This document shows positions 20,243 to 27,519 of a DNA stretch of 64,000 bases, in pieces. Each line of letters begins with the position of its first letter. Positions within the stretch are counted from its first letter, which is position 1. This stretch comes from Candidatus Eiseniibacteriota bacterium (GTDB lineage Bacteria > Eisenbacteria > RBG-16-71-46 > CAZAMP01): NCBI GenBank assembly GCA_965224245.1, contig OZ245046.1:2336001-2400000 (forward strand). Reading direction: 5' to 3'. Position numbers and translations under genes: made by a program. The notes under the pieces are model-generated. The model was not told where the DNA came from. It searched no databases and saw nothing but the letters and a program-made list of their open reading frames with translations.

Positions 20243-21390
20243 GCGGGTCCGATGGCGTCTCGCACCCAGGTCATCTCGGCCGCGATGGCGCTGTCGAGAT
20301 CCGCGGCGCGGTACGCCTCGGGCAGGACGTTCCATGCGTACGTCTCGACCTCGAAGTGCCGCGTCCCGTGGTGCACGAGGGCGGTCTCGATCGCATCGGC
20401 GATCTCCGACTGCGTGGTCCCGAGGATGCCCAGCGTGGACGCGAACACCGGGACGTGGAAGTGCACGCGCACCTCCGATCCCGACTCCATCGACGTCATC
20501 GGCCCCGTGGCCAGCGGGAGATCGTCGAAGAACTCCCGGCGTCCCTGGGCCTCGATCATGGTCTGGTGCAGGTAGCGATCCTCCGCGAAGTCGGAGAGCG
20601 CGGCCACCACGAGGCCCTCCTCGTCCAGCGTGGCCCGGATCGCCGACGAGATCTGGACCTTGCCCACGACGATCCCCGCCCGCGCGAGGTGCTCGATCAC
20701 CTCGGCCTGCGGCTCGAACATGACCGCGGCGTGGCACACGTCGTGACAGACGCGGATGTACCGGCGCACGGTGCGCTCGTCGCCCACCCGGAACAGGTAC
20801 TCGTGGAAGAACGTCACCACGTCCCGCACGGTGTCGAGCACGCAGCCGGGCTCGGGCTCGAGATCCAGGTGGATCGTGCGCCCGGTCTCGGCCTCGACGA
20901 GCGCCAGGTGCGCGGCCATCGCGACCAGGCGCCGCGAGGCCATCTCGAGCCCGGCGGGGGTCACGTCGCCGCGCCAGCCCACGGGCAACGTGGAGATGCT
21001 GCCCTCTTCCCCCTCGGGCAAGAGTGCGGCCAGCACGGCCACCAGCTCGCGCGTGTAGACCTCGCGAGCCTCCTCGGTCCAGTTCGGGCGGTAGACGTCG
21101 TGCTTGACCCGGCGGCCGTGGAAGTCGCCATACGGAAACCCGTTGATCGTGTACGCGATCAGGCCGCTGGACCCGAGCGTCTCGGTGAGCTCGCGCGCGC
21201 GACGAGCCCCGTCACGCGCGGCCGAGGCCGAGAGCCAGATCCCGATGGCCAGGCCGTCGGACGCCTCGATGTGCCGGCGCACACCGGCGCCGTGCCGGGC
21301 CAGGTTGGCCAGCGTCTCGGTCCACGTCGGCCCCTCGTGGACGTTCGTGCAGTACCCGAGGCGGGTGCCCGGTCCGAGTGCGTCTTTCAT
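20239..21390 (-). CDS. eboE: EboE (xylose isomerase-like TIM barrel)
   Basis: 'YCTNVH', '[16 protein letters not shown]', 'LEPEPGC', 'CHAAVMFE', 'RYLHQT', 'RVHFHVP', 'EVETYAW'. Confidence 0.9.
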
Positions 21391-22190
21391 GAGGCGTGGA
21401 ACTTCCCCGACTGCGACAGAAAGTGAAGGGGGTTCTCGTACGAGATCCGCGAGATGATCGCGTCGGGGTGACCGCGACGGCGCATCTCGCGCTGGCACTT
21501 CGGGACCGCCAGCGGATCGGACGGCCCCCAGTCGCCCGCCGAGTTGATCCACAGCCGCTCGGGGCCGACCGTCTCGATGATGTCGGCCGCGCGCTGGGGC
21601 GTGCACTTCGTGTCGGGATAGAGCGTCATGCCCGCCCAGAAGCCGCGGTCGAGGACGTCGGCGACCGTGTGCTCCTCCACGTGGTCGATGAGCACGCGTC
21701 CGGGATCGATCGCCGCGTTCGCGGCCACGCAGTCCATGATCAGGCGCGTGCCCTTTCGCTTGTCCTCGAGGTGCGGCGTGTGCACGAGGATCAGCTGATC
21801 GTGCGCGGCCGCGATCGCGATCTGCTCCTCCAGGATCGTCATCTCGTTCCGGCTGTTCTTGTTCAGCCCGATCTCGCCCACGCCGATCACGTTGGGGCGG
21901 CTCAGGAACTCGGGGATGATGGCCAGCACCTCGCGCGCGAAGCCGACGTCCTCGGCCTCCTTGGGATTGATGCAGATCCACGCGTGATGCCGGATGCCGT
22001 ACTGCGCGGCGCGCGCCGGCTCCTGCTCGGTGAGATGACGGAAGTAGTCGTGGAAGCCCTTGGCCGAGCTGCGATCGAAGCCGGCCCAGAACGCCGGCTC
22101 GGTGATCGCGACGCACCCCGCGTGGGCCATCCGCTCGTAGTCGTCGGTGGTGCGCGAGACCATGTGGATGTGAGGGTCGATGTACTTCAC
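21387..22190 (-). CDS. eboB: TatD family hydrolase (EboB)
   Basis: '[16 protein letters not shown]', 'EPAFW', 'GVGEIG', 'VHTPH..DK'. Confidence 0.9.
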
Positions 22191-22543
22191 GAGCCGTCTC
22201 CCGGCCAGGCGCCGTGCGCGCCCTTCATCCCCGCAGCGGACGGGATCGGATCGGGGGTGGGATCGCTGAACACGTCGAGCACCCGGCGGGCGCGCTCGCC
22301 CGATCCGTCGTCGAGGAGCGCCAGCGCACGCCGGAACGCGGCGACCCGGAAGTCCTCCCCGGCGCCGGCGGTATCCGCCGCGCCGGCGGTATCCGCCGCG
22401 CCGGCGGCATCGGCGGCGCCGACTACCTCGGCCGCGCCGACTACGTCGGCGGCGCGATCGAGTCGATCCAGGAACGCGGCCACGTCGATCAGCTTCGCGC
22501 GATGCTCCAGGAAGTAGGCGTCGAGAATCTGGGCCGTCGTCAT
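22187..22543 (-). CDS. small hypothetical protein in the ebo cluster
   Basis: '[25 protein letters not shown]...DFR...RARRVL..FSDPT..PI...KGA.GAW'; overlaps the eboB start. Confidence 0.75.
22362..22451. repeat. 5 x 18-bp in-frame tandem repeat (e.g. ADTAGA)
   Basis: gcgccggcggtatccgcc-like units at 22362, 22380, 22398, 22416 and 22434. Confidence 0.8.
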
Positions 22544-22592
22544 CGGGCACCGACCACCGGACATGTTGCCTCCCGCCGGAACCGGGTGAACC

Positions 22593-23726
22593 TCAGGCCG
22601 CGCGCGCCAGCGAGCGCATCGCGTCGATCATCAGGCCGTGATCGATCTCACCCACGTCGACGGGCCGTCCGATGCCCTCGAGCAGCATGATCGACAGCGC
22701 GCCGCCCAGATGCTCCCGGAACTCCTCGAGTCCGGCGAGCACCGCCGCGGGCTCGGCCAGAGCCGGATGGTACAGCGAAAAGCCGAGCGCTTCGAGACAC
22801 TCCCGAATGCGAGCGCCCTCGGCCGGAGCGAGGAGCCCGGCCCGCTCGGAGTAGGCCACGTCGAGCGCGATGCCGATCGCGACCGCGGCGCCGTGGGACA
22901 GCGCGTAGCCGGTGACGGTCTCCAGACGGTGGGCGGCCCAGTGCCCGAAGTCCAGTGGACGGGAGTCCGTCAGCTCGAACGGGTCGCCGCCCTCGGTGAT
23001 GTGATCGAAGTGCAACCGGGCCGAGGCCTCCAGGAGTGGCCCCGCCGTGTCGAGATCGCGCGCGAGAATCGCGGGAGCGGCCCCTTCGACGCGCTCGAAG
23101 AGCGTTCGGTCCTTGATCAGCGCGACCTTCACGACCTCGCTGAAGCCCGAGCGCCAGGGCTCGTCGGGCAGCGACGTCAGGAGCTCGAGATCGTTCACGA
23201 CCGCCCAGGGCGGGGCGAACGTGCCGATGAAGTTCTTCTTTCCGAACGCGTTGATGCCGTTCTTGACCCCCACGCCCGAGTCGCACTGCGAGAGCGTGGT
23301 GCTGGGGACGCGAACCAGGCGAACCCCCCGGTGCGCGATGGACGCCGCAAAGCCGACCGTGTCGAGCACGGCCCCCCCGCCGACCGCGAGCACGGTCGAC
23401 CGGCGGCAGATGCCGGCGGCGTCCAGCGTGGTCAGGATCCGTTCGAGAGCGGAGCGGTCGTTCTTGATCGCCTCGCCCCCCGGCACGATCACGGGCGCCA
23501 CCGGCACGTCGACGCGCGAGGCGTGACGGTCGAGATAGGTCGCCAGCGCGCCGGTCAGCTCCGGCCGCGCCGCGGCGAGACCGCCGTCGACGAACGCGGC
23601 GACGCGGGCCCGATCCCGTCCGCCCGCGTCCAGAACGGACGCAAGCGTGGCGTTCGACGCCCCGAACACGTCGCGCGTGGTCAGGAGGCGATGACTGAAG
23701 CGGATCGAGAAACGCTGTTCGAGCAT
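22593..23726 (-). CDS. eboD: 3-dehydroquinate synthase-like sugar-phosphate cyclase (EboD)
   Basis: 'PGGEAIKN', 'GGGAVLD..GFAASIAHRG', 'DSGVGVKNG', 'PLDFGHWAAH', 'HGAAVAIG'. Confidence 0.9.
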   Translation of the reverse strand: MLEQRFSIRFSHRLLTTRDVFGASNATLASVLDAGGRDRARVAAFVDGGLAAARPELTGALATYLDRHASRVDVPVAPVIVPGGEAIKNDRSALERILTTLDAAGICRRSTVLAVGGGAVLDTVGFAASIAHRGVRLVRVPSTTLSQCDSGVGVKNGINAFGKKNFIGTFAPPWAVVNDLELLTSLPDEPWRSGFSEVVKVALIKDRTLFERVEGAAPAILARDLDTAGPLLEASARLHFDHITEGGDPFELTDSRPLDFGHWAAHRLETVTGYALSHGAAVAIGIALDVAYSERAGLLAPAEGARIRECLEALGFSLYHPALAEPAAVLAGLEEFREHLGGALSIMLLEGIGRPVDVGEIDHGLMIDAMRSLARAA

Positions 23727-23786
23727 GGCGTCGATGCACTTGGTTGGCGAGTGGTGGGGACCGTCCGGCCGAATCAACGAGGTTCT

Positions 23787-23816
23787 AGCATACGGGAGCG
23801 GACGCCATCGCGCCAA
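23787..23816 (-). promoter_or_regulatory. candidate sigma70 promoter of the ebo operon
   Basis: TTGGCG-N18-TATGCT on the minus strand. Confidence 0.4.
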
Positions 23817-23871
23817 GCGAGGCACGACGGGACCCGTGTAAACGGTCCGTAAAATACCCCCCGACAAGGAG

Positions 23872-23901: not shown

Positions 23902-23932
23902 GGATGACGTCATCCACGAAGGAGAGGTTCGC

Positions 23933-25312
23933 GTGCGCTGCAGCTCCCGTCGGTCGATCGCGATCGGTCTCGTCGTCCTCGCCGGCGCCGCCTGCCACGC
24001 GGGCTCCCGCGCGGGGGACGTCGCGATCGACGCGCGCGACGTCACCGCTCGAGGGGTTCCCGAGGGCGCCCTCATGCTCCAGCTCCTGGCCACCGCGCGA
24101 GTCGACGGCCAGGTACTGCCCTGCGGCTGAAAGGGCAACCGGGGCGGGTTGGCCCGGCGGGCCACCCTCATCGACTCGCTTCGGGCGGCGAACCCGAACA
24201 CGATCGTCGTGGATGCCGGCAACTTCAGCGACAACACGACGGGCACCGGCCTGCCCCTCAGCCAGTTCATCTGCGAGGTGTACGATCGGCTCGGCTACGA
24301 CGCGATCTGCCTGGGCCCGACCGACCTCCTGCACGGGCTCGACGCGTTCCACGTGGAGACGCCGATCGTGATGTCGAACGTCGAGGTCCGCGACGGCGAC
24401 TCGACGCGGCCCGCGTTCGAGCGCCATGCGATGCGCACGCTGCCCGGCGGTCTGCGCGTCGGCATCTTCGGGCTCCTGACCCAGGACCTCCCGCTGACCG
24501 TGCTCGACGCCGCCCCCGACATCGTCGTGAACGACCCCTTCGCCGTGACCGAGGAGATGCTCGACACCCTGGACCGCGAGGGCGCGGATCTCGTGGTGCT
24601 CCTGTCGCAGCTCGAGAACGCCCTGACCGACTCGGTCCTGGCCCGGAACCCGCGCATCGACGCCGCCGTGTGCGGGAGCACCACGGCCCGCCACCCGCGA
24701 CGGGCCCCGGAGGCGCTCGACGCCCGGGTCCTCTACCCCGTCTCGCGGGCCCCGAGCCTGGCCCACCTGACCCTGACCGTGTCACCCGAGGGCGACGTCC
24801 TCGACGCCGTCGCCACCGAGACCGACGTTCGTCACGCGCTCGTGCCCGATCGCGAGCTCGAGGCTCGCATGTCCGAGCTCTTCGTCGAGCTTCGCGAGCT
24901 TCGGGCCGAGACGATCGCGTCCCTCGTGACCGAGGCCGGCGGCGAGGACGCGGCCGACCGGTACGTCGGGTACGACGAGTGCGCGCAGTGCCACGTGCGC
25001 GAGCACGAGATCTGGAAGGGCTCGCCCCACGCGGGTGCGTATCGGACCCTGATCGAGCTGGGGCTCTCGGAGAACGTGGACTGCCTTCGCTGCCACGTGG
25101 TCGGCTACGGCCGGGAAGGCGGCTTCCGATCCGGGTCGGCCGAGCCCGATCTGGGCGGCGTGCAATGCGAGAGCTGCCACGGGATGGGATCGAAGCACTT
25201 CGAGCCGATCCCCGAGCATCGGCTGGAGGGCCTGTGCGTGAGATGTCACGATCAGGAGAACTCGCCCGACTTCGACCTCGACGTCTACCTCGAGCAGATC
25301 CGGCACTGGTAG
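23933..25312 (+). CDS. probable selenoprotein: UshA/5'-nucleotidase-like domain with C-G-U motif fused to a tetraheme cytochrome c (459 aa with UGA readthrough)
   Basis: ORFs 23933..24130 and 24149..25312 are in the same frame, split only by TGA 24128-24130: 'QVLPCG(U)KGNRGGLARRATL'. Signal peptide; 'VVDAGNF', 'LGYDA'; CAQCH, CLRCH, CESCH, CVRCH. Confidence 0.85.
24133..24155 (+). promoter_or_regulatory. putative bacterial SECIS hairpin
   Basis: GGGC-AACC-[GGGGCG]-GGTT-G-GCCC begins 2 nt after the UGA and has a G-rich loop. Confidence 0.6.
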
Positions 25313-25361: not shown

Positions 25362-26138
25362 TCACCCTGCCGATCGGATGAGGCGCGCCAGGTAGCGTCC
25401 CTCGTCCTCCTCGCAGACCACGCTCGCGTGCCAGCCCCGCGCGGCGGCGGCCCGCTCCAGCGTCCACGGATCCGCGAACAGCCACGGGTACTCGGCGCCC
25501 CGCGAGCCGCGGTACTCGAGGTGAAAGCGAACGTCTCCGGCGTATCGTCCGGATACCTCGCGCGAGAGCACGCCCGCGAGCACCGACGGCTCGCGGGATC
25601 GCCGGAGATCGATCGAGTCGACGAGCGCGGAGCCCGACGGGGCCACGAGCCGCTCCAGCGCATCGAAGAGCCGCGGCAGGTCGGCGAGGGCGCCGACGAG
25701 ACCGAGCCCGTTCATCAGCATCAGCACGGTGTCGAACGGCTCGGTCGGATGGTGATCGAACAGATCGGCCGCCCGGGCGTCGGATATGCCCCGGGCGCGC
25801 ATGACGTCGACCGCCTCGGGCACGACGTCGATCGCGCGAACCGACCGGCCGTCCGCGATCAGGGCCAGCGAGTGGCACCCCGCACCCGCCCCGGCATCCA
25901 GCACGCGCGACCCCGAGAGCGTCAGCGCGGTCTGCTCGATGGCCGAGAAGTCGGACTCGCCACGGAAGAACGTGGCGGCCGGCATCGACTGCCGGCCGCC
26001 GTCGTCCCGATGCGCCACCACGGGATGGCCGGTGTCACCGGCGTTCCAGTCGGCCAGCGCGCGACCGAGCGGCGCGAACGCGGGCGCAGGGGGCGAGCTC
26101 CCGCGTACCCGCTCGCCGGGTGGGCGCTCAGCGCCCAC
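25362..26138 (-). CDS. class I SAM-dependent methyltransferase
   Basis: 'RVLDAGAGAGCHSL', 'FDTVLMLMNGLG', 'PWLFAD'. Start uncertain. Confidence 0.85.
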   Translation of the reverse strand: MGAERPPGERVRGSSPPAPAFAPLGRALADWNAGDTGHPVVAHRDDGGRQSMPAATFFRGESDFSAIEQTALTLSGSRVLDAGAGAGCHSLALIADGRSVRAIDVVPEAVDVMRARGISDARAADLFDHHPTEPFDTVLMLMNGLGLVGALADLPRLFDALERLVAPSGSALVDSIDLRRSREPSVLAGVLSREVSGRYAGDVRFHLEYRGSRGAEYPWLFADPWTLERAAAARGWHASVVCEEDEGRYLARLIRSAG

Positions 26139-26140
26139 CG
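26116..26140. other. perfect 11-bp inverted repeat over the SGNH gene stop codon
   Basis: ccggtgggcgc-tca-gcgcccaccgg. Confidence 0.6.
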
Positions 26141-27519
26141 GCGAGAAGTGCCTGCATGGCCTCGAGCGCCTGGTGGCCGGACGCGTCGAACAGGTCACCC
26201 GGTCCGCGGCGCGCACCCGGCGCCGCCTCGAACCCGGTCGCGTTGGTCACCCCGGACACGTCCTCCGGCGGGATGCCCAGACCGTACGCGCCGTTCAGTG
26301 CCTCGATGAACAGGTTCGCGACGTGCGCATAGCCCTTTTCGCTGGGGTGAAATCCGTCGAGGCTGAACGCGGAGTTCACGTTCTGCCCGGTGGGGCCCCA
26401 TGCGAACAGCGAGTTCAGCTGGGACGGGTCGGCCGGCAACCCCGAGAGCCCGGCGGCCACGTCCACCAGCGCCCAGCCGTTGGCCGCCGCCGTGCTGGCG
26501 ATGATCGCGTTCAGCTGCGAGACCGCGCCGGTGACCAGCTCCATCTCCGCCGAGGTGAGCGTCGCATTCGACGGCAGCGTGTTCTCGCCGGTCCCGTACG
26601 GCGGCGGCAGGTACGTGGCCGCCACCGCGGGGTCGGCCAGCGCGGACTGGGTGAGCAGCACGCGCTCCACGTCGCCCTCGACGCTCTGGAACGGGACGAA
26701 CGTGCCGCCGGCGTCCACGCCGGTCGGAACCGTCGTGAAGAACGGGGTGGCGGTGACGTTCACGACGTTCGCGATCGCGACCCTGTCGATCTCCGCCGAC
26801 GCGAGCGCGGACACGACCGCGTTCAGCGTGGGCTGGAGGAGCGTCGTGAACACGTTCAGCGACGTCGGGTTCCCGCCCGCCGCGCCGCCGAGCACGTCGT
26901 TGCTGCCGATCCAGAGCGTCAGCACGTCCGGCGCGAGGGCGACCGCCTGCTCGAGCTGCGTCTGACCGCCGGGCGGCAGGTTCGCGTTGCGGAGGATCAG
27001 ATCGAAGAACGGGTTCGGGATCAGGATCGTCGAGCCCGAATCGACCGTCGTGAACATCTCCTGCGAGAACGCGCCGGGCACCCCGAGGTTGTCGTACGGC
27101 ACCGGATGCTCGGCGTTCCGGAGGAGTGCGAGGATCGCGTCGAGCGGGTTTGCGGGGTCGAACCCCGGCAGGATGTCGGCGCCGATCGATCCGTCGGGGC
27201 GGACGTGGAGCGCCGTCAGGGGCGCGCCCGAGGGGTGCCGGGTGCTCCCGAGCCCCGGCGCGGCGACGATCGGCTGTGCGTACGCCTGCCATCCCGCCTG
27301 CGTCGCGATGCGACGCCCGTACGAGGCCTCCTGCCCCCCGATGATCAGCCCGCCGTTGAGGAAGCCGGCCGTGAAGCTGTCTCCGATGGACGCGAGCCGG
27401 AGCGTGTGATGGGCGCTCCGCTGCGAGCTGACGACGTCGGGTGTCCGGGGGCATCCCGTGATCACGAGCCCGGCGACGGCCGCAAGGACGATGGACCACG
27501 ATCGTGACGTGCGAAGCAT
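26128..27519 (-). CDS. SGNH/GDSL hydrolase lipoprotein
   Basis: Lipobox 'ITGC'; blocks 'GDSFTAG', 'NLGVPGA', 'IGSND', 'DGFHP'. Confidence 0.85.
   Translation of the reverse strand: MLRTSRSWSIVLAAVAGLVITGCPRTPDVVSSQRSAHHTLRLASIGDSFTAGFLNGGLIIGGQEASYGRRIATQAGWQAYAQPIVAAPGLGSTRHPSGAPLTALHVRPDGSIGADILPGFDPANPLDAILALLRNAEHPVPYDNLGVPGAFSQEMFTTVDSGSTILIPNPFFDLILRNANLPPGGQTQLEQAVALAPDVLTLWIGSNDVLGGAAGGNPTSLNVFTTLLQPTLNAVVSALASAEIDRVAIANVVNVTATPFFTTVPTGVDAGGTFVPFQSVEGDVERVLLTQSALADPAVAATYLPPPYGTGENTLPSNATLTSAEMELVTGAVSQLNAIIASTAAANGWALVDVAAGLSGLPADPSQLNSLFAWGPTGQNVNSAFSLDGFHPSEKGYAHVANLFIEALNGAYGLGIPPEDVSGVTNATGFEAAPGARRGPGDLFDASGHQALEAMQALLAGGR

Follow-up and report, generated by a model that had tools for sequence, protein, structure and literature searches.

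A divergent UshA-like protein with a probable in-frame selenocysteine and a tetrahaem cytochrome domain in a Candidatus Eiseniibacteriota genome

Gene architecture

The stretch of DNA analysed here, called the window, comprises 64,000 nucleotides of contig OZ245046.1 (positions 2,336,001 to 2,400,000 of the forward strand) from a Candidatus Eiseniibacteriota bacterium. The element in question is a gene on its plus strand whose only in-frame TGA almost certainly encodes selenocysteine (Sec), and whose predicted product joins an UshA-like domain to a tetrahaem cytochrome domain. The list of open reading frames (ORFs) shows two entries at this locus: 23933-24130 (65 residues, GTG start) and 24149-25312 (387 residues, TTG start). 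Both are in the same frame, and the sole break between them is the TGA at 24128-24130. Reading this codon as Sec (U) yields a 459-residue protein, '...VLPCGUKGNRGGLARRATL...', with U at position 66 and no other irregular codons. An initial annotation made from the letters of this DNA had described one frame broken by a single TGA in LPCG*KGNRGGLARR, and the ORFs and the read-through translation bear this out. The ribosome-binding site that it assigned to the upstream piece, and the four CxxCH motifs that it assigned to the downstream piece, are likewise found there, and the signal peptide that it named corresponds to a signal-like N-terminus (Table 1).

Table 1. Features of the gene and its product, in window coordinates
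Feature	Position	Strand	Basis
Shine-Dalgarno-like AGGAG, 8 nt 5' of the GTG start	23920..23924	+	sequence reading
Whole coding sequence, 459 codons, with Sec as codon 66, plus the TAG stop (25310-25312)	23933..25312	+	one frame, one TGA
Signal-peptide-like N-terminus, about residues 1-25	23933..24007	+	hydrophobic helix 5-23 in the model; homologue N-termini similarly hydrophobic
UshA/5'-nucleotidase-like N-terminal domain, about residues 45-300, lacking the metal-ligand motifs	24065..24832	+	profile matches, alignments, Foldseek
Cys64-Gly65-Sec66, codons TGC GGC TGA, proposed redox centre	24122..24130	+	C-G-(U/C) in 56/56 alignment rows covering the column
Hairpin resembling a selenocysteine insertion sequence (SECIS), GGGUUGGCCC-GGC-GGGCCACCC, over the G-L-A-R-R-A-T codons	24146..24167	+	comparison across homologues
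TTG false start of the gene-caller 387-residue fragment, within the hairpin	24149..24151	+	ORF list and public protein record
Long linker helix, residues 307-335	24851..24937	+	secondary structure of the model
Cytochrome c554-like tetrahaem domain, residues 344-459, in place of the UshA nucleotide-binding C-terminal domain	24962..25309	+	PF13435, PDB 1bvb
CxxCH motif 1, C350-H354	24980..24994	+	invariant in homologues
CxxCH motif 2, C384-H388	25082..25096	+	invariant in homologues
CxxCH motif 3, C412-H416	25166..25180	+	invariant in homologues
CxxCH motif 4, C435-H439	25235..25249	+	invariant in homologues

The public protein collection holds this gene only as the 387-residue downstream piece (P0002), in agreement with the earlier remark that standard gene callers would split it. 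Many homologues in public collections are likewise fragments of 390-404 residues, named 'hypothetical protein', '2',3'-cyclic-nucleotide 2'-phosphodiesterase (5'-nucleotidase family)' or 'Cytochrome c-554 precursor'. The correct annotation would be one 459-codon selenoprotein gene, not a 65-codon ORF followed by a 387-codon 'cytochrome', and the same split error affects many of these homologues.

The product is predicted to be exported. Its n-region reads S-R-R-S-I-A-I (window 23933-23965) and resembles a twin-arginine motif, with R-R present there in several homologues too. The general secretory pathway is the normal export route for c-type cytochromes, and a twin-arginine motif on one of them would be unusual.

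Sec or Cys at one column

Each of 41 genomes from this class, when searched in six frames, contains a match. Exactly one TGA falls inside the match in 35 of the 40 best-scoring rows, and none in the remaining five. Among 20 loci that were fetched, 19 carry C-G-U with the TGA as its third residue and a frame that continues to four CxxCH motifs. The twentieth locus and the other TGA-free relatives have P-C-G-C at this column, except for one sequence, L048. The initial annotation had named the alignment of homologues at the TGA column as a check on its reading, and the residues found there are indeed Sec or Cys.

The exception (L048, at G019:C59:741-2525) is full length and has four CxxCH motifs. 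Its C-G-U/C motif is gone ('...YLEPLEREGEVRGGLARRA...'), with no Cys at this place, and it reads as a natural loss of both chalcogens.

The family extends well beyond this class. One scan of species-representative genomes confirms 513 relatives, and the best 80 of these 513 loci comprise 38 Sec forms, 35 Cys forms and 7 that are unreadable at the column. Candidatus Eisenbacteria account for 13 of these 80 loci. The others include Blastocatellia and other Acidobacteriota, Nitrospirota, Thermodesulfobacteriota, Krumholzibacteriota, Fibrobacterota, several Gammaproteobacteria and Myxococcota.

Selenocysteine machinery and the reality of the TGA

The genome encodes a complete set of Sec genes. In the source assembly (6.94 Mb, completeness 97.39%), selA (427.6 bits) and selD (378.4 bits) score above their curated cut-offs, as does selB at C1:3604087-3605955 (353.4 bits summed against a cut-off of 242). 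ARAGORN finds one tRNA-SeC with the anticodon tca at C1:2266365-2266462 (minus strand), about 70 kb before the start of the window. Whether the organism has Sec machinery was another check named at the outset, and all four components (selA, selB, selD and tRNA-Sec) are found in this 97%-complete genome. The codon itself also appears to be read correctly. The TGA is spanned by Logan contigs of three runs, all from one sample that may also have been the source of the assembly. No letter differs, and the word depth at the site is about 11 in two of the runs and 2 in the other. A read error had been raised as a possible refutation of the Sec reading, and the contigs of all three runs read TGA.

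Two further observations concern the machinery genes. The selD gene (C1:4218184-4219107, plus strand) has one in-frame TGA within its 378-bit match, and the selenophosphate synthetase of this organism is probably itself a selenoprotein. The tRNA-SeC gene has within about 700 bases of it a sequence that resembles a translational GTPase (C1:2265005-2265688). Its 67.5 bits fall short of the cut-off of the selB model, and the true selB is the one at C1:3604087-3605955.

A SECIS-like hairpin downstream of the UGA

The predicted hairpin starts 15 nt past the UGA, and its GGC loop (24156-24158) lies 28 nt from the U of the UGA. A 22-mer identical to the hairpin of the window occurs in one homologue (L022), where it folds with -15.0 kcal/mol. 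Across 32 aligned Sec forms, 90.3% of the hairpin cells are paired, a value reached by 0 of 500 shuffles, and pairing falls to 55% if the partner is slid by one column. Two pairs that involve only synonymous positions are particularly informative about the RNA. Where the third position of the Leu codon faces that of an Ala codon, the combinations are GC (18), CG (7), GU (4), UG (2) and AU (1), and none is unpaired. The second pair, between the third bases of an Ala and an Arg codon, varies from CG (30) to UA (2), again with no unpaired case.

The hairpin also distinguishes Sec from Cys forms. In the full set of distinct, though related, sequences that were collected (71 Sec and 46 Cys forms), all five inner pairs form in 66/71 Sec forms versus 3/46 Cys forms. 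When the comparison is confined to sequences with the peptide x-A-R-R-A, the five inner pairs are present in 58/60 Sec and 3/10 Cys forms. The loop is GGC or GGA in 66/71 Sec forms and in 13/46 Cys forms. The peptide itself is LARRA in 53/71 Sec forms versus 2/46 Cys forms, which shows the RNA to be a constraint on the protein. The initial annotation had correctly expected a SECIS downstream of the UGA, in that a hairpin with covariation and a G-containing loop is present, but it placed the structure wrongly. It described a hairpin beginning 2 nt past the UGA, where the fold of the first 63 nt is unremarkable. The origin of the hairpin in the G-L-A-R-R-A codons and the much greater uniformity of this peptide among Sec forms can both be put to direct use in selenoprotein gene finding and in the design of expression constructs.

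The TGA at 24128-24130 is thus almost certainly a Sec codon, because the Sec machinery is present, homologues have TGA or Cys at this column, and the downstream hairpin covaries. Together with the contigs that span the codon, these results support the original description of the gene as a hidden selenoprotein.

A phosphoesterase-type fold with a lost metal site

Two-metal phosphoesterases carry their metal-binding and catalytic residues in the motifs DxH, GD, GNH(E/D), H and GxH. An AlphaFold model of the window protein, built on a 59-row alignment, has a mean predicted local distance difference test (pLDDT) score of 87.4 and a predicted template modelling score of 0.81, but the block that holds C-G-U reaches a pLDDT of only 56. 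Its best Foldseek matches in the PDB are 5'-nucleotidases and CD73 (E about 1e-18). The window protein shares with UshA, 5'-nucleotidase and CD73 (PDB 5h7w, 7d0v, 2z1a, 4h2i and 1oi8) the N-terminal fold, a helix that starts with GG(L/V)ARRAT and, in the 'S/A-N-V/L' strand, the invariant Asn149. The DxH, GD, GNHE, H and GxH residues, in contrast, are all replaced, and there is no C-terminal domain of the kind that these enzymes have. The Cys-Gly-Sec loop and the four haem sites belong to the window protein.

The extent of the replacement is apparent from an alignment with the true 5'-nucleotidase encoded in the same genome. HTNDIHG of that enzyme corresponds to ATARVDG in the window protein, DAGDF to DAGNF, GNHEF to GPTDL, LLTHIG to LLSQLE, and GGHSH to CGSTT. 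None of the seven metal or catalytic positions is kept (D to R, H to D, D to N, N to P, H to T, H to Q and H to S). The initial annotation had noticed that the GNH metal motif reads GPTD, and GNHE of the true enzyme does align with G-P-T-D at residues 128-131. The nucleotide-binding C-terminal region of the true 5'-nucleotidase falls in a gap of this alignment. With Pfam at E up to 0.1, neither the phosphoesterase domain nor the 5'-nucleotidase C-terminal domain is matched in the window protein.

Across the family, among the 59 rows of its alignment, the Asn and the His of GNH are each kept in 0, the His of DxH in 2, the Asp of DxH in 30 and the Asp of GD in 23, while C-G-(U/C) is present in every one of the 56 rows that cover the column. 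Because of these family-wide motif counts, the conserved chemistry appears to be that of two chalcogens and the haems, not that of a two-metal centre.

The tetrahaem cytochrome domain

The only Pfam match of the window protein is Cytochrome_C554 (PF13435; 55.7 bits against a cut-off of 20.8), and PDB 1bvb, a cytochrome c554, matches the haem domain by sequence with E 2.1e-9. The four CxxCH motifs, which are predicted to attach haem, are invariant among homologues. The domain shares its tetrahaem arrangement with cytochrome c554 of Nitrosomonas europaea (PDB 1bvb, 1ft5 and 1ft6; PF13435), and residues 344-433 align to chain residues 5-106 with three CxxCH motifs in register. It differs from that protein in being fused behind an enzyme-like domain of 300 residues. 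Unlike c554, which is a free carrier, the haem domain here would act as an internal wire.

Family membership and paralogues

The window protein matches the NCBIfam model NF041198 ('UshA_like_PCGU, UshA-like (seleno)protein') with an E value of 3.2e-57 and 194.3 bits, under a curated cut-off of 275. The N-terminal part corresponds to positions 24-238 of the model, and residues 301-448, which are the cytochrome part, to positions 359-517 (of 519). The protein has both hallmarks of the model, namely the P-C-G-U/C motif (as L-P-C-G-U, residues 62-66) and the two-part architecture. Relatives score from 142 to 306 bits, the highest being L030 at 306.3, which is over the cut-off, and 11 of the 41 genomes of the class contain a match over the cut-off.

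This curated family is the 'COG0737 UshA-like, CxU' selenoprotein family of the 2008 Global Ocean Sampling (GOS) study by Zhang and Gladyshev, the tabulated entry of which, 'COG0737, UshA-like, CxU', gives 76 Sec sequences and 92 Cys homologues (PMC2398784). An UshA-like selenoprotein family also appears in tables of a 2022 review (PMC9312934), and a table of a 2026 review cites NF041198 together with a second family, NF049981 (PMC13188914). In the main texts, supplements aside, a full-text literature search finds no function or cytochrome fusion described beyond such table rows. The initial annotation was therefore right that UshA-like proteins with CxU or CxC motifs had been reported, since they have been in print from 2008 onwards in these sources. 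It overrated the novelty of the gene, which is hidden from gene callers and not from the field, because the family has been in print since 2008 and NF041198 already covers the cytochrome part. The family is widespread and has been listed for nearly two decades, and what the window copy contributes to this catalogued selenoprotein family is no more than a divergent paralogue.

Judged by its sequence, the window protein is a divergent, lineage-specific paralogue within the known PCGU family. A quick tree gives it a long branch within a clade that has a Shimodaira-Hasegawa-like approximate likelihood ratio (SH-aLRT) support of 99 and that consists only of copies from the window genome and its one same-family relative. 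The tree also groups it with a haem-less paralogue, at an SH-aLRT support of only 82. Like the NF041198 proteins, it has the P-C-G-U column, an UshA-like N-terminal fold, a C-terminus with four CxxCH motifs, an N-terminal export signal and interchange of Sec and Cys. It differs from them in its long-branch, lineage-only clade and in keeping 0 of 7 old metal-ligand positions, compared with 4 in the bona fide member L030. The window gene also stands alone and not behind an LptD_2-type gene. Compared with NF049981 (UshA-like (seleno)protein family 2), the fold and the Sec in the same loop are shared, at a weak 34.7 bits for the window protein. That model has 262 positions and lacks the cytochrome part, and its cut-off of 140 is far above this score and that of the haem-less paralogue (59 bits).

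Most relatives have TGA at this column, and so do two paralogues of the window protein encoded in the same genome. One is part of the locus L142 (C1:2986677-2991490, minus strand), where an LptD_2-type gene (177.6 bits) is followed by a Cys form with E-C-G-C and then by a Sec form with E-C-G-U. The Cys form is an UshA-like tetrahaem protein, the Sec form scores 235.5 bits to NF041198, and the three genes likely form an operon. The other (C1:5175192-5176142, plus strand; L141:284-1294) is the haem-less paralogue, a lipoprotein-like protein that has P-C-P-U and whose gene carries the same hairpin. Its match to NF041198 reaches 81 bits, so that its scores to both families are under the cut-offs. 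The genome contains two more Cys-form copies.

Proposed mechanism

Taken together, these results make it highly probable that the locus is a single intact gene for an exported Sec protein, in which a hairpin directs the reading of UGA and a metal-free, divergent PCGU paralogue is fused to a tetrahaem domain. SelB and tRNA-Sec would decode the UGA at 24128-24130 under the direction of the hairpin that lies 15 nt downstream. The 5'-nucleotidase-type fold no longer has a two-metal site or the C-terminal domain that binds nucleotides, and the protein is predicted not to be a phosphoesterase. The Cys64-Gly65-Sec66 loop is predicted to sit just past the former first metal motif, and the long helix would join this domain to the c554-like tetrahaem domain. 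Following export of the protein, the haems would be attached in the periplasm.

The proposed path of the electrons leads through the four haems and ends, or in the other direction begins, at a selenenylsulfide of Cys64 and Sec66 that is carried by a mobile loop. This loop would reduce, or in reverse oxidise, a small substrate, for which a sulfur or selenium compound is the most plausible candidate. We consider such an exchange between the haems and a Cys-Sec selenenylsulfide, acting on a small substrate, to be somewhat better than an even bet. The initial description of an exported Sec-redox and multihaem electron-transfer protein is supported, and the earlier reading as a whole stands except for the place of the hairpin. 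Its structural components are there as predicted features (Sec, a signal-like N-terminus and four CxxCH motifs), and the redox role is suggested rather than demonstrated by them.

Flexible chalcogen shuttles are known from the C-terminal Gly-Cys-Sec-Gly of mammalian thioredoxin reductase and from the Cys-Gly-Cys arm of Erv2. These shuttles and the proposed one would have in common two close chalcogens on a mobile segment between cofactor and substrate. The folds are unrelated, however, and the cofactors are flavins there and haems here, so that the analogy is one of mechanism only.

Weighing the alternatives

Several results weigh against the preferred reading of the gene as a hairpin-directed Sec protein of the PCGU type. 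The NF041198 score is below the curated cut-off, and functional equivalence with that family therefore does not follow. Besides the CxxCH histidines, only H366 and H422 (both invariant) and H458 (at least 90%) are conserved. Three conserved non-motif histidines for four haems therefore leave room for a different chemistry. As for the hairpin, the A-R-R-A codons are by nature partly self-complementary, and the same small hairpin is possible in 3/46 Cys forms. The compared sequences are kin, and the hairpin counts consequently overstate the independent support. Rfam, searched with 24050-24300 and an E value limit of 10, returns only two chance-level small RNA matches and no SECIS family. The 63 nt that begin at the UGA do not outdo shuffled sequences in folding (z -0.73; 41 of 200 shuffles fold equally well). 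Finally, the flanks that were scanned (190 of 300 flanking ORFs, including 73 ORFs at 23 chosen loci of L097-L140) contain no constant neighbour partner, and hence point to no substrate.

One rival takes the TGA as a true stop, in favour of which the insignificance of the 63-nt fold on its own can be cited. The gene would then be a pseudogene, or two genes for a 65-residue exported peptide and a 387-residue cytochrome, which is exactly the split that gene callers give. This explanation is close to refuted. TGA occurs at the same column in the fetched Sec-form loci of many genomes from several phyla, with Cys elsewhere, and 35 of the 40 best matches among the 41 related genomes have a single in-frame TGA. 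The downstream piece would be left without a signal peptide, yet c-type haem attachment requires export. The Sec-form-specific hairpin and the complete Sec machinery argue in the same direction. Still less credible is an error of sequencing or assembly that turned TGC, TGT or TGG into TGA, which has only its general possibility in its favour. Against it, the contigs of three runs agree to the letter, and TGA also stands at this column in most relatives and in two paralogues of the genome itself. It is also very improbable that the protein is a working 5'-nucleotidase or phosphoesterase in which Sec is an accessory only. Its fold and sequence do resemble 5'-nucleotidases, and homologue fragments bear the name of a phosphodiesterase of that family in public records. 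All seven motif positions are nevertheless replaced, the Asn and His of GNH are found in none of the 59 family rows, and a cytochrome domain stands in the place of the nucleotide-binding C-terminal domain.

The alternative that bears most directly on the chemistry is that Sec66 or Cys64 is a ligand, either the axial ligand of a haem without a conserved distal His or part of a new metal site, and that the chemistry takes place at a haem ligated by Sec or Cys. Cys-ligated haems occur in sulfur-oxidising cytochromes, and cytochrome c554, which the domain resembles, has one five-coordinate haem. The count of three candidate distal histidines (H366, H422 and H458) for four haems fits such an arrangement, and some members, such as L030, keep four of the old metal-ligand positions. 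The window protein, on the other hand, has none of the old metal ligands. A C-x-U/C-x-C motif with both positions invariant typically marks a redox couple of two chalcogens, and the low confidence of the modelled CGU loop suggests that it may be flexible. We regard a ligand role as improbable, though less so than the true stop, the read error or the working phosphoesterase. The probability left by the selenenylsulfide scheme and the ligand variant falls to other redox roles or to none.

A broader proposal combines elements of both chemistries. The PCGU proteins may be a class of periplasmic selenoenzymes with a composite site, made of selenium and an open or Sec-ligated haem, that acts on a sulfur or selenium substrate. 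In them, a phosphoesterase scaffold stripped of its metals would bear a mobile Cys-Gly-Sec loop that cooperates with a c554-like chain of four haems, one of them without a conserved distal histidine. We hold this to be rather doubtful, and distinctly less likely than the selenenylsulfide scheme. If it is true, the window copy, which has no old metal ligands and all of the CGU and haem features, would be a natural minimal version that shows which parts are needed.

Gene neighbourhood

The genes on either side of the window gene are unrelated to it and run on the other strand (21387-23867 and 25362-27519, minus), and for this reason it appears to be monocistronic. These neighbours are a TatD-like gene, a divergently transcribed 3-dehydroquinate-synthase-like gene (116.5 and 93.1 bits), an S-adenosylmethionine-dependent methyltransferase and a GDSL-type lipase with a lipoprotein-like start.

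In other genomes, an LptD_2-type outer-membrane gene lies upstream of homologues in 5/19 and 8/36 loci. The LptD_2-type gene is the only LptD-like gene found in the window genome, where no classical LptD (PF04453) was found, and the recurring adjacency may for that reason reflect lineage synteny. A few loci each contain genes for Cys/Met pyridoxal phosphate enzymes, rhodanese, DsbA-like proteins, ResB or other multihaem cytochromes. The rhodanese, Cys/Met pyridoxal phosphate enzymes and DsbA-like proteins give the gene context a faint sulfur theme.

Two of these neighbours can be located more closely. A gene for a DsbA-like thioredoxin-fold protein lies directly 3' of the homologue and on the same strand in L073:1210-1950, L090:1579-2211 and L093:2610-3266, all of which are Cys-form loci in metagenome-assembled genomes of Thermodesulfobacteriota and Nitrospirota. 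ResB-like cytochrome c biogenesis genes occur near the homologues in L061, L073 and L083.

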